From contig CT868020.1 of NCBI GenBank assembly GCA_000165425.1, positions 186,001-250,000 of the forward strand: DNA of 64,000 nucleotides, in the 5' to 3' direction. Origin of the DNA: Paramecium tetraurelia. Its lineage: Eukaryota. Below, in pieces: positions 22,222-26,688 of this stretch (position 1 is the first letter of the stretch; each line of letters opens with the position of its first letter). The notes beneath the pieces were generated by a model. That model was not told where the DNA came from. It did not search any database and was given only the letters and a program-made list of their open reading frames with translations. The position numbers and the translations under genes are program-made.

Positions 22222-23888
22222 ATGATTTGCTGCTCATCATCAAAGAAGAAAGATGATAACAAAAAACCAATTGAGATATTAGAACAAATCGCACCTGAGA
22301 ATCAATAAGGAGATAAGTAAACTAATCAGTTATAAATTTGAACATAGATCCTGTAGAACCAATCAATAGCAAGAGGTAGAGTTGGAAATGGAAGAACGAC
22401 CTAAGAAAAATTCAGTGGGGTATCAAGTGTAAGATGAAAATGTCTCAGCATCAATATGTCCCTCATTTGTGGTTGGCAAAACTCCGTTTACTCTTTTCGT
22501 TATGAGTCTCCTTGAGAAATAATAAAACATGAAAAAGGAGTCTCAATAACAGGAGGAAATGAAGATCGACTTTTAGGAAGATTTGAGTGTGATTGTCAGT
22601 TACCCCCAAATAGAGGCTGAAGTTAAGAATAACGAAAAAGACAAATCATAACTTGTAGACATTCCTGATCAGCCTGAAGTGATCTAGGAGGAGGATGAGG
22701 AAGATGACGATCGAGAGATGTCAGAGGAGGAGGCCAAGAATGCAGCCATCTTCAAATGGGCCAAAGAAATACATGATTACAATACAGACAATACTGAAGA
22801 ATTGATTTCGAAGGCTGTCTCTAATTTTAAACCACTTCAATCAAAGGAGGAATCAAGGTCCACCTTAGCACATAAGGATGGAGGTAAAGTGTGCAAAAAT
22901 AAAAAATTAATTAGAACCTTGAGAGCCATTGGCAAAGAGTTGATCAAATAAATTGGTAAACAAATTTTATCTGGAAATTTAAATTTAACAACTGTGTCAT
23001 TCCCTATCAAGGCCATGATACCCAAATCAGCACTTGAGAAGGTCTTGATGTCTAGTTGTCTCTTCCCACTCTACATCAACAGAGCTGTTCTGGAGAAAGA
23101 TCCCATCGAAAGAGTAAAGTATCAACCCTATTATTAGATGAAGCTAATTATTTGTGCCACCTTAGGTAATTTCTATTTGAATTGCTCCTTTCTCAAACCC
23201 TTAAATCCCATCCTTGGAGAAACCATCTCTGGTCTCTATCAAGATGGCACTACCGCATATGCTGAACAGATCTCACACCACCCTCCCATTAGTTACTTTT
23301 TAACCATAGGTCCCAAAAATAGTTATAAATTTTATGGTTATTACAATTACGAGGCCAAAGCAGGAGTCAACTCACTCTCCTTGAGGAATAAAGGCAAAAG
23401 GTTTTTGTAATTTGCTGATGGAGAATTAATTGAGTACAACTTCGCCGGAGAAGAATATAGTGGTAGTTTCTGGGGTCCCATGAAAGTCGAATGCAAAGGC
23501 AAGATTACATTTTTGGATAAAAAGAACGACATTTCAGCTTGTGTTGAATTGGATAGTGTAAGGTGGAAGGCATCAGATTACTTGTCTGGAGAAATCAAAC
23601 AGAAAGGCAAAAAAGTCTGTAAAATCTATGGATCCTATATGGGCTACATAGAATTTGGAGAAGTCAGATATTGGGATGTCAATTACATACGTCCATACGA
23701 ATGCAAAGTCTTTAAACCTAATCAATTTCTTTTGAGTGATGCTTCCTTCAGACCAGGTATCCAATTGTTATATCCATGTAGATTTAAGATAACTTAAACG
23801 CAATAAAGTACAAGAGGCTCAGAAAGAGAAGGATGATCTGGAAATGCAATAGAGACAAGATGCTAAACTCAGAAAACCCAAAAAATGA
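22222..23888 (+). CDS. Oxysterol-binding protein (OSBP/ORP family)
   Basis: NLTTVSFPI, KPLNPILGET and the AEQISHHPPIS signature; N-terminus MICCSSSKKK. Confidence 0.95.
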
Positions 23889-24189
23889 TTTTCACTGAAT
23901 TATTGTTATTCATATTTATGCAAACAGTTTCTTAAATTTTGTATTTTATTTACAAATTGTAACTAAACTAATAATTTAATCAATTTTTTAATCAAACTAA
24001 TAAACAGAATTTATTGACGAAAATGAATTAATTCATCTTCTATATAATGTATTAAGGCTTTTGATGATGGTAAATAAATTTGAATTAATTTAAAATTCAC
24101 ATGATTATTCCTAAATATTTCTGCTTTTTAATAAGCACAATTAATATTAATTTAATTGCTTTATTATATATAATTGTGGTTGTGTATAT

Positions 24190-24921
24190 TCATTCATCAA
24201 TTTTAAGTACAAACCCCAAAATGTCTCGAATTCCTACTTGGCTTTGATCGACTGGTTTATGGGAAGTGGAATAATTCCAGAGTGATTTATCATCGATAAT
24301 GTATCCTTCTCCGGGTTCGAGACTCATTTCAAATAGTAGCTTAGTTTTGTCAGGACTATATATTTGACTATCAGCTCCTTGACAATTGATCTTATTAACT
24401 ACTCCGATGATTTCTAAATCATTTCCATCTCGATTGGGTCCTTCTGGAGTCGACTGAGCAGGTTAGTCGGCGTAGGATATCTAATGATATTATATATGGA
24501 AACATACTGTTCTGACGGCATGCACAGAGATTTGAGCCTTTTTGTATTATTTTAATTGCCAAGTGATTTGAAGAGTATTGTAAAGGAAATCTTTGTAGAT
24601 CTGATCGTGCTTCATCTCTTTTGTTAGTTCTTCGTAGACATTCGCATATTGGAGACATTTGGTTTCATCGTAATTGTCTAGACGATATTCTTCATGGAAC
24701 CTCGTCATATTGCCATCCTTGTCAAACTCAATTTGATAATTCATCATTCTTCTTTATCTCATGATTTTATCGGATGGCAATTTGAGTCTCTTTTGTAAAT
24801 AGAGATCAGGCACTAGAGTTTCGAAATGAGGTTTGAGCTATTGAAAATCTGATTTGACATCCCTGTTCGTGAATGAAGCAAATGGGAATTTTGTTGATTT
24901 GAGTGCCTATAAAACTTTCAT
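24190..24921 (-). CDS. 2OG-Fe(II) dioxygenase-like protein (bacterial 2OG-Fe_Oxy_2/BsmA-type pattern) with altered metal ligands
   Basis: LVPDLYL...RQRR...ISVHAVRT-(intron 24481-24507)-ISYADQPAQSTPEGPNRDGND...LEPGEGYIIDDKSLWNYST...GIRDIL. Confidence 0.8.
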
Positions 24922-25038
24922 AAAATAAATTAAACAATAGTCAAAAATAAAACTTATTTATTTTCAATTTTTGAAATACCTCTAAATCTATCTCTTTATA
25001 TATATAAATGTGTCTCAAATTAATAAATCATAACTAAT

Positions 25039-26688
25039 TCAAATTTTATAAGGTGCCAAACTTGATCTTCTCACCTCTTCCACTTCCTACTCCTTGTCAT
25101 GCAATCTCATGCGCAGACTCTCTACTTCACTAGCCAACACTACAATAATCGATAATTGATCTTAAAGCCTTTTTATTATAGAACCCTCGTCCGCATATTA
25201 CATTCTCCATTGTCTCAATTCATCGTCTTACACCTTAATTTCATCATTCAGTCGATCGATCTCAGCAGAAAGCACTCGACACTAAATATTTCAATACACT
25301 CAAATACATTTTCTTAGAATTTCTTTAACTATTCTACTTGGTCCTCCAATTGGAGAATTTGTTATTGCAATTTAGTGAGCAATCTCCTAAGATTTTCGAT
25401 TTCTTATGATTTGTCTTCTATTGTATTTCGGTATGACACAACAGTGCTTTGGAATTCTTCAATTCTTGCAGAATACTATTAGATAATACTTGGTAGTTTA
25501 AGTGATAGTAATCTACTCCTTCTACTTGATCAACTGATTCAATTTGTCCACTTCAAGCAGGAGATTCTGATATCTGCCTTCCAATTCAGATTTCTTCTTT
25601 TAAACGTCCTGCAATTCAGTTAAGAGTTAATTTACTTTGCTCTTTTCAGTAAGGAACTCTAATATGAATTTAGTAAATACAATTATTGGCATTTTCCACT
25701 TAGGATTTCACTTAATTCAATTATTCCTATCTTTATTTCAATTAACCCTCCAAGGCAAGTATTGTGTCATTCAATTACTGATTCTCCTGTTGGATTCGTT
25801 TATGATCATCATTTATCAACTATAATTTAAGATACTTTTATTTCCAACTCTCTGTTTCTTCTGACTTTGAAACCAACAACTTGTTCACTCTTTCTGTCTC
25901 ATTTTTGTAGGATAACAATTGATTCTCCAATTCCCTTTACTTATTTATTTCTTTCTGGAGGATAACATTCTTCAGATCGTCGTTCTCCTTCTATTTTTGA
26001 TTGCATAAATCCTTCCACTTCTTCAATTCGCCCTCTAGGAATTCTCTCTAATATGAAGAATTGAGTTCTTAGGTTTGAAGTGCCTTTTCCTATGAAATAT
26101 AAATATTATTGTATTACAATTTCAGTTTTCATTTCAGATTCCAATTGATTCCTCAGAACTTGCATTTCATCCAATTTGATAGTCTCAAATTCTCTTAATT
26201 GTAGAGTGAGATTATCAATTTGATTGGAGAGGTTGACAACTCTACTCTCGTAATAATTGGTCTAGAGTTCCTTCTGCTCTTGAATTTCCTCCTATAACGT
26301 GGTGATTTGGATGATGAGTTCATATTTCTCAATTTTGTGAGTCTCCACGACGTTGATCATTTCATTCAATTTATTAGTCAGATCTATTATTTATTAATTC
26401 CAAATGATGTCTATCTTAGGTATTATCTTGCATCTCTTTAATTCTGAAACGCAACTTTTCATTTTCTGATCCCAATCTCTCAATTTCACAAGCCATCAAA
26501 AATTGGCATATCTGTGGACTCGATTTTTACTATCTACTTTCAGGAGTGGATCTGATATTATCAATTGAAGTTTCATGTATTTGATATCTTGTTTCACGTG
26601 TTTAAGGAGTGTTAGAACGCACAGTCTTAGTTTCAGAGGTGTACTTATATTCTTAAATGTTCTAAATGCGTTGTTGCTAGTAAGACAT
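25039..26688 (-). CDS. Long coiled-coil (probably cytoskeletal) protein
   Basis: ATG 26688, extended heptads, repeated VLSAEIDRL / VLASEVESL motifs, tiny introns, TGA 25039-25041. Confidence 0.8.

Follow-up and report, generated by a model that had tools for sequence, protein, structure and literature searches.

Dioxygenases of the 2OG/Fe(II) class bind iron through an HxD...H triad, which in the subfamily considered here reads PEGxHxDG...WH...RD. This subfamily, Pfam family PF10014 (2OG-Fe_Oxy_2), is studied as a source of biocatalysts that functionalise C-H bonds. A gene of the ciliate Paramecium tetraurelia, located in the window (the whole stretch of DNA that was analysed, 64 kb in length), encodes a member of the family with asparagine at both histidine positions of the triad. 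The question that it raises is whether such a protein can still act as an iron-dependent oxygenase and, if it cannot, for what purpose its fold is kept.

Gene structure and transcription

The gene occupies positions 24921..24190 on the minus strand and consists of two exons separated by one in-frame intron. Under the ciliate code (translation table 6), in which both TAA and TAG specify glutamine, the reading frame starts with the ATG at 24921 and stays open until the TGA at 24192-24190. Exon 1 (24508..24921, minus strand) begins with the ATG at 24921-24919 and encodes residues 1-138, among them R55, R57, E77, K88, N94 and H134; RNA reads cover it over 24518-24924. Exon 2 (24190..24480, minus strand) encodes residues 139-234, followed by the TGA, and is covered to approximately 24185. 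Between them lies an intron of 27 nt (24481..24507, minus strand; GTATG...TTAG), which is in frame and contains no TGA. The spliced product of 234 aa is 100% identical to an unnamed P. tetraurelia protein (P0004, with two NCBI accessions), and the annotated 234-aa proteins lack the nine residues that the 27-nt intron would encode.

In two stranded oligo-dT RNA-seq runs (X21 and X22), first mates were found on one strand only, covering 24185-24924, with next to no reads over 24000-24184. Reads with an identity of 99% or more to the window numbered 145 and 231, respectively, and in both runs the read depth dropped over 24481-24517. Moreover, RNA contigs from X3 and X4 (the label of X4 as an RNA run is a guess) span 24309-24700, lack exactly 27 nt at 24481 and show no other difference. 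This exact removal establishes that the intron is real and that an mRNA is made, as expected from an earlier note on this locus (hereafter, the earlier note), which had described an intact ORF with a ciliate intron. Loose read ends were observed at the exon 1 boundary (window 24509; five reads in X21 and nine in X22). By our reading they decode to the start of exon 2 of a paralogue (I-S-Y-P), which would mean that the paralogue is spliced at the same junction.

Family, active-site substitutions and their distribution

The assignment of the protein to PF10014 in the earlier note was borne out by an HMM search, in which the match extended over profile positions 1-191 of 192 (E 7.4e-36; score 124.1 bits, cutoff 23.1); a search of the 234-aa protein against the NCBIfam profiles gave no match. 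The AlphaFold (AF2) model, computed from a 134-row alignment, had a mean pLDDT of 89.8 and a pTM of 0.87. When this model was compared with the PDB using Foldseek, the top ranks were taken by BelL 8jms (E 2.6e-16), HrmJ 9dq0 and 9dqp-r, IDO 6lnh, the BsmA homologue 3pl0, 8w8h and TqaL 7eeh; for 8jms, 9dq0, 6lnh, 3pl0 and 7eeh, E ranged from 1e-16 to 2e-11 and TM from 0.6 to 0.78. AlkB and PHD2, which are more distant 2OG oxygenases, appeared only from E of approximately 1e-5 to 1e-4. Structure prediction, which had been suggested as a check, thus gave a model that matches the folds of BelL, HrmJ, IDO and TqaL. The product is a true PF10014 homologue with a predicted double-stranded beta-helix fold like that of the solved members.

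To our knowledge, all characterised members of PF10014 are iron enzymes. According to the accessible parts of the cited papers, the relatives characterised so far are Fe/2OG enzymes that act on free amino acids, for example by hydroxylation of isoleucine (PMC3684760, PMC13336071), by cyclopropanation of the free amino acid 6-nitronorleucine, the substrate of HrmJ and BelL (PMC12006828), or by aziridination of valine in the case of TqaL (PMC12006828, PMC10764440). HrmJ and BelL, which form nitrocyclopropanes (PDB 9dq0-2, 9dqp-r and 8jms), are the best matches among solved structures in both sequence and structure; unlike the Paramecium protein, they are bacterial iron enzymes with both histidines, encoded in biosynthetic clusters, and the identity is 17-22%. 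IDO (L-isoleucine 4-hydroxylase of Bacillus thuringiensis; PDB 6lnh) resembles the Paramecium protein in its profile match to PF10014 and in predicted fold (Foldseek E 4e-15, TM 0.69-0.78), and the two have in common the RxR motif, the HQxR-type histidine, the PEG..D.G motif and the C-terminal RD. However, IDO carries H-x-D...H and a mid-protein arginine, whereas the Paramecium protein carries N-x-D...N and N94, and the Foldseek identity is approximately 15%. The fungal, aziridine-forming Fe/2OG enzyme TqaL (PDB 7eeh) is likewise eukaryotic and belongs to the same fold group, but it has an intact triad and a longer chain, extended at the N-terminus.

In pairwise HMMER alignments to the HrmJ and BelL chains, the segment PEGPNRD lies opposite PEGPHRD or PEGVHHD, and SLWNY lies opposite the second histidine. 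The iron triad accordingly reads N154-x-D156...N207, with the C-terminal R223 kept. The codons, all on the minus strand, are AAT at 24433..24435 for N154, at the position of the first iron-binding histidine of the family (PEGxHxD); GAT at 24427..24429 for D156, the triad carboxylate; AAT at 24274..24276 for N207, at the position of the second iron-binding histidine (LWH); and CGA at 24226..24228 for R223, the family arginine of the C-terminal RD motif. The motif coordinates given in the earlier note were right to within 3 nt: STPEGPNRDG lies at 24453-24424 and not at 24450-24421, and SLWNYST, placed at about 24262-24285, was found at 24285-24265.

We then determined how the family occupies these positions. 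A search of representative proteins gave 216 matches at E <=1e-3, and the alignment combined 115 full-length relatives (170-340 aa, from the best 150 of the 216) with 6 short fragments and 13 proteins of the P. aurelia complex. Among the 115 relatives, histidine was found at site 1 in 114, aspartate in 114, histidine at site 2 in 114 and the C-terminal arginine in 112. When all rows outside the aurelia complex that have a residue at the position were counted, fragments included, the corresponding values were 115/116, 115/116, 116/119 and 116/118. In contrast, N, D, N and R were found in each of the 13 full-length proteins of the aurelia complex. The pattern N-x-D...N with aspartate and arginine retained, as originally proposed, is therefore upheld both by the HrmJ/BelL alignments and by the alignment of 134 rows. 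The 2-His-1-carboxylate site (H-x-D/E...H) that marks the Fe(II)/2OG dioxygenase class is absent; the basic residue following the second histidine position, for the C5 carboxylate of 2OG, is present by sequence as R223, a role that we presume from the general layout of 2OG oxygenases.

Two further substitutions had been missed in the earlier note. Position 94 is arginine in 113/115 relatives and asparagine in 13/13 aurelia proteins (AAT, 24640..24642, minus strand), and position 77 is glutamine in 108/115 relatives and glutamate in 13/13 aurelia proteins (GAA, 24691..24693, minus strand). Milder changes were seen at positions 168 (R to K) and 174 (G to A). The other top-tier core residues R55, R57, H134, P150, E151, G152, D156, G157, G173, L192, D202 and R223 are kept. 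The arginine that matches position 94 sits in a conserved ...R.F/Y... motif, both in the alignments to the two solved structures and in the profile consensus. In the arginine cluster of the PF10014 free-amino-acid oxygenases, R55 and R57 are thus retained, the DxR arginine aligns with K88 and the RxF arginine with N94. According to the accessible part of a review (PMC10764440), the carboxylate of the TqaL substrate is bound by three arginines. Mapped by motif spacing only, N94 would replace one of these (TqaL Arg144, Arg178 or Arg185). In the accessible parts of the open-access literature (PubMed Central and bioRxiv), we found no protein of the 2OG-oxygenase fold with asparagine at both histidine positions, and no paper that mentions the Paramecium gene identifiers or Paramecium together with PF10014.

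The cluster of the protein at 90% identity has 22 members, and among the 15 listed, 13 are full-length proteins of 234 aa from P. sonneborni, P. tetraurelia, P. octaurelia, P. primaurelia and P. pentaurelia, each species contributing two to four. N...D...N was present in all 13, which settles, for five species of the aurelia complex, whether the pattern is fixed. The same cluster contains two very short annotated proteins of P. tetraurelia from one contig (P0015, 45 aa, and P0016, 51 aa), which may represent a broken or mis-annotated further paralogue. In the RNA reads, no variant was listed at either asparagine codon among the 40 differences listed of 57, and synonymous variants at the neighbouring positions 24432 and 24436 were listed. 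Histidine in orthologues or raw reads, which the earlier note had regarded as fatal to its proposal, was therefore not observed. RNA editing from asparagine to histidine was considered and rejected because no variant was listed at these codons at a depth of approximately 20-50, and an error of assembly or sequencing was rejected because the 13 independent annotated proteins agree in these residues.

Beyond the 90% cluster, the nearest matches among the best 150 of 216 were short gene-call fragments from Logan, JGI and ENA records, a pattern that would fit prokaryote-style gene calling on ciliate DNA. One of these, P0020 (98 aa, 60% identical), reads H-x-D...H. A search with P0020 as the query yielded one more fragment, P0177, which has histidine at site 2, as does P0053. 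Site 2 is threonine in P0025 and serine in P0051, and it is asparagine in P0176, a 45-aa ENA fragment obtained from a search for shorter proteins. Position 94 also varies among the N-terminal fragments of the clade: P0036 has R, P0022 and P0048 have K, P0021 has N and P0003 has S. In fragments P0003, P0019 and P0021, similarity is lost immediately after ...AVRT, just before the point where P0020 begins, and this arrangement suggests that the position of the intron is old.

A FastTree phylogeny of 46 rows was computed from five aurelia proteins, five fragments (P0020, P0177, P0053, P0025 and P0051) and 36 full-length representatives, P0140 among them. Aurelia proteins and fragments grouped in one clade (SH-like support 100), whose stem measured 1.08 changes per site; branching inside this clade is not settled by the tree, in which residues of the fragments occupy only 19-41% of the columns. 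Proteins of the P0140 cluster (230 aa, four members), which have Y-x-G...N with the arginine kept, fall elsewhere in the tree as a separate lineage, and the site has therefore degenerated more than once in the family. P0140 and P0211-P0213 are near-identical metagenome proteins of PF10014 and lie on contigs of up to 75 kb. Two pattern scans of metagenome contigs gave 358 and 389 pattern matches, among which there was no confirmed relative.

Selection and possible functions

Reads 90-95% identical to the window (152 in X21 and 248 in X22) derive from at least one co-expressed paralogue. Forty differences to this paralogue were listed, with 17 more beyond those. Under table 6, 35 of the 40 were synonymous, two of them CAA/TAA exchanges, and five were non-synonymous (S50A, I53T, Q63H, H105Q and S209A). 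With 144.7 synonymous and 557.3 non-synonymous sites, these counts correspond to dS of approximately 0.29, dN of approximately 0.009 and omega of approximately 0.03, a rough estimate from RNA read variants that may mix paralogues; omega would be approximately 0.14 if all 17 further differences were non-synonymous. The binomial probability of the 35:5 ratio, with 20.6% of sites synonymous, is approximately 2e-19, or 3e-11 if the 17 are counted as non-synonymous. The ratio and the omega value thus indicate strong purifying selection, and the dN/dS estimate, which had been named as a check on the proposal, is not near 1 even at its upper value. Paralogue reads carry TAA in place of CAA at glutamine codons 219 (window 24240) and 130 (window 24534), which directly supports the reading of TAA as glutamine in this gene family.

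The earlier note had further argued that two matching His-to-Asn changes look selected, and this part of its argument was not borne out as it stood. Among the 13 aurelia proteins, 192 of 234 columns (82%) are invariant, so that two invariant asparagines would be expected anyway. In addition, the change from histidine to asparagine is one C-to-A step towards AT, relatives within the clade have threonine or serine at site 2, and the unrelated P0140 reads Y-x-G...N. The pattern is best read as purifying selection on the gene, but not as evidence of selection for asparagine as such.

The reading towards which we lean is that the protein is a pseudo-oxygenase under strong selection, which would bind a ligand or a partner in the old pocket without oxidising it. 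Both histidines of the Fe(II) site are lost (N154 and N207) together with one near-invariant arginine (N94), with the rest of the family core kept, and activation of O2 by iron is most likely no longer performed. The ligand in the kept pocket might be a small acid (2OG through R223, a related dicarboxylate or a derivative of an amino acid); alternatively, the pocket might bind a partner protein. This possibility is favoured because the pocket has otherwise been retained, under strong selection, although both histidines and a core arginine are gone; threonine or serine at site 2 in fragments of the clade is also expected if the side chain no longer binds iron. However, the triad aspartate and R223 are fully kept, which would fit a working metal/2OG site as well.

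Pseudo-enzymes are common, and their commonness makes the Paramecium case interesting rather than startling. JARID2, for example, is a JmjC-type pseudo-enzyme of a family other than PF10014, with a 2OG-oxygenase fold and an incomplete metal site. As a natural, strongly conserved and expressed member of its family, the Paramecium protein could provide a clean system for the 2OG-oxygenase fold after iron chemistry, whether in ligand sensing, with another metal or as a scaffold. The name '2OG-Fe dioxygenase' should not pass to the Paramecium proteins by annotation.

It seems rather unlikely, in comparison with a pseudo-oxygenase, that the protein is an active enzyme whose metal site has been re-tuned to consist of oxygen ligands only (Asn O, Asp and Asn O, with a chelating 2-oxo acid). 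Such a site would hold a harder ion (Mn2+, Mg2+, Ca2+ or Fe3+) and would convert a new substrate by chemistry that is either non-redox or redox of a different kind. Asparagine can ligate metals, as in lipoxygenases and metallophosphatases. The retention of D156, G157, the PEG motif and R223, the invariance of the whole pocket region in 13 paralogues and the very strong selection are consistent with this idea, and the changes to N94 and E77 could mean that the substrate is new, not that one was lost. However, relatives within the clade carry threonine or serine at site 2, which are poorer ligands than asparagine, and no protein of this fold with such a site was found in the accessible open-access literature. 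A wider proposal, to which we assign a similarly low probability, is that Paramecium and its relatives possess an IDO-type lineage with an all-oxygen N-D-N site, which would act as a sensor of 2OG or amino acids or as a hard-metal site (Mn, Mg or Ca) with chemistry new to the 2OG-oxygenase fold. If true, this would explain why each species keeps several paralogues under very strong selection.

More doubtful is a residual Fe(II)/2OG oxygenase, whose iron would have as ligands D156, the chelating 2OG, water and, weakly, the asparagine carbonyls. AspH, a member of a different family with two histidines, exemplifies the same principle, in that the fold is kept without the canonical triad; two protein ligands suffice for its activity, and single-ligand variants are reported to be active in the accessible part of the source (PMC10947486), so that missing ligands do not prove inactivity. 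Among AspH/JmjC-type proteins with incomplete metal sites, the accessible open-access literature contained no report of one with asparagine at both histidine positions. The retained aspartate and arginine would agree with residual activity, but the presence of histidine at each site in 114/115 relatives argues that these ligands are normally indispensable in the family, and here both are lost along with a near-invariant arginine.

Finally, it is very improbable that the gene is a decaying copy without function, whose annotation and expression are incidental: the loss of catalytic residues and the annotation of one P. tetraurelia cluster member in two pieces (P0015 and P0016) would be in keeping with decay, but none of the 13 full-length proteins, which come from five species, has a disrupted ORF, 82% of columns are invariant, synonymous differences outnumber non-synonymous ones by 35:5 (binomial p ~2e-19), and spliced RNA is present in an oligo-dT library.

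Origin and genomic surroundings

PF10014 is overwhelmingly bacterial according to the Atlas clusters, and the Paramecium gene represents a rare eukaryotic, intron-bearing branch of this mostly bacterial family. A scan of genome contigs confirmed 527 of its 568 pattern matches, of which the best 80 were, by title, nearly all from cyanobacteria, with 26-36% identity; the pattern required histidine, which makes these matches unusable for counting its conservation. The closest named full-length protein among the best 150 of the 216 matches is from the cyanobacterium Symploca. Cyanobacterial PF10014 proteins in general (Symploca, Nostoc, Anabaena, Trichodesmium and others) are the closest named full-length relatives listed, with 26-36% identity over nearly the whole length; they are canonical, all were found with the histidine-requiring pattern, and a long stem lies between them and the Paramecium clade. 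Identity this low (26-36%), a stem of this length and a sampling without labelled eukaryotes permit no judgement of a gene transfer or its direction, including the bacterial origin that the earlier note had put forward as possible.

The G+C content of the window is approximately 23-34% (in steps of 2 kb). Neither neighbour of the gene suggests a functional link, one being an oxysterol-binding-protein gene and the other a coiled-coil gene. The former, upstream in the window and convergent with the dioxygenase-like gene, is a long ciliate-code ORF at 22226-23836 (plus strand) that matches Pfam Oxysterol_BP (PF01237, E 2.8e-24). The latter comprises coiled-coil-rich ORF pieces in two frames at 25039-25529 (minus strand), which have weak coiled-coil Pfam matches only and probably form one intron-containing gene; RNA depth starts again near it, at approximately 24999.
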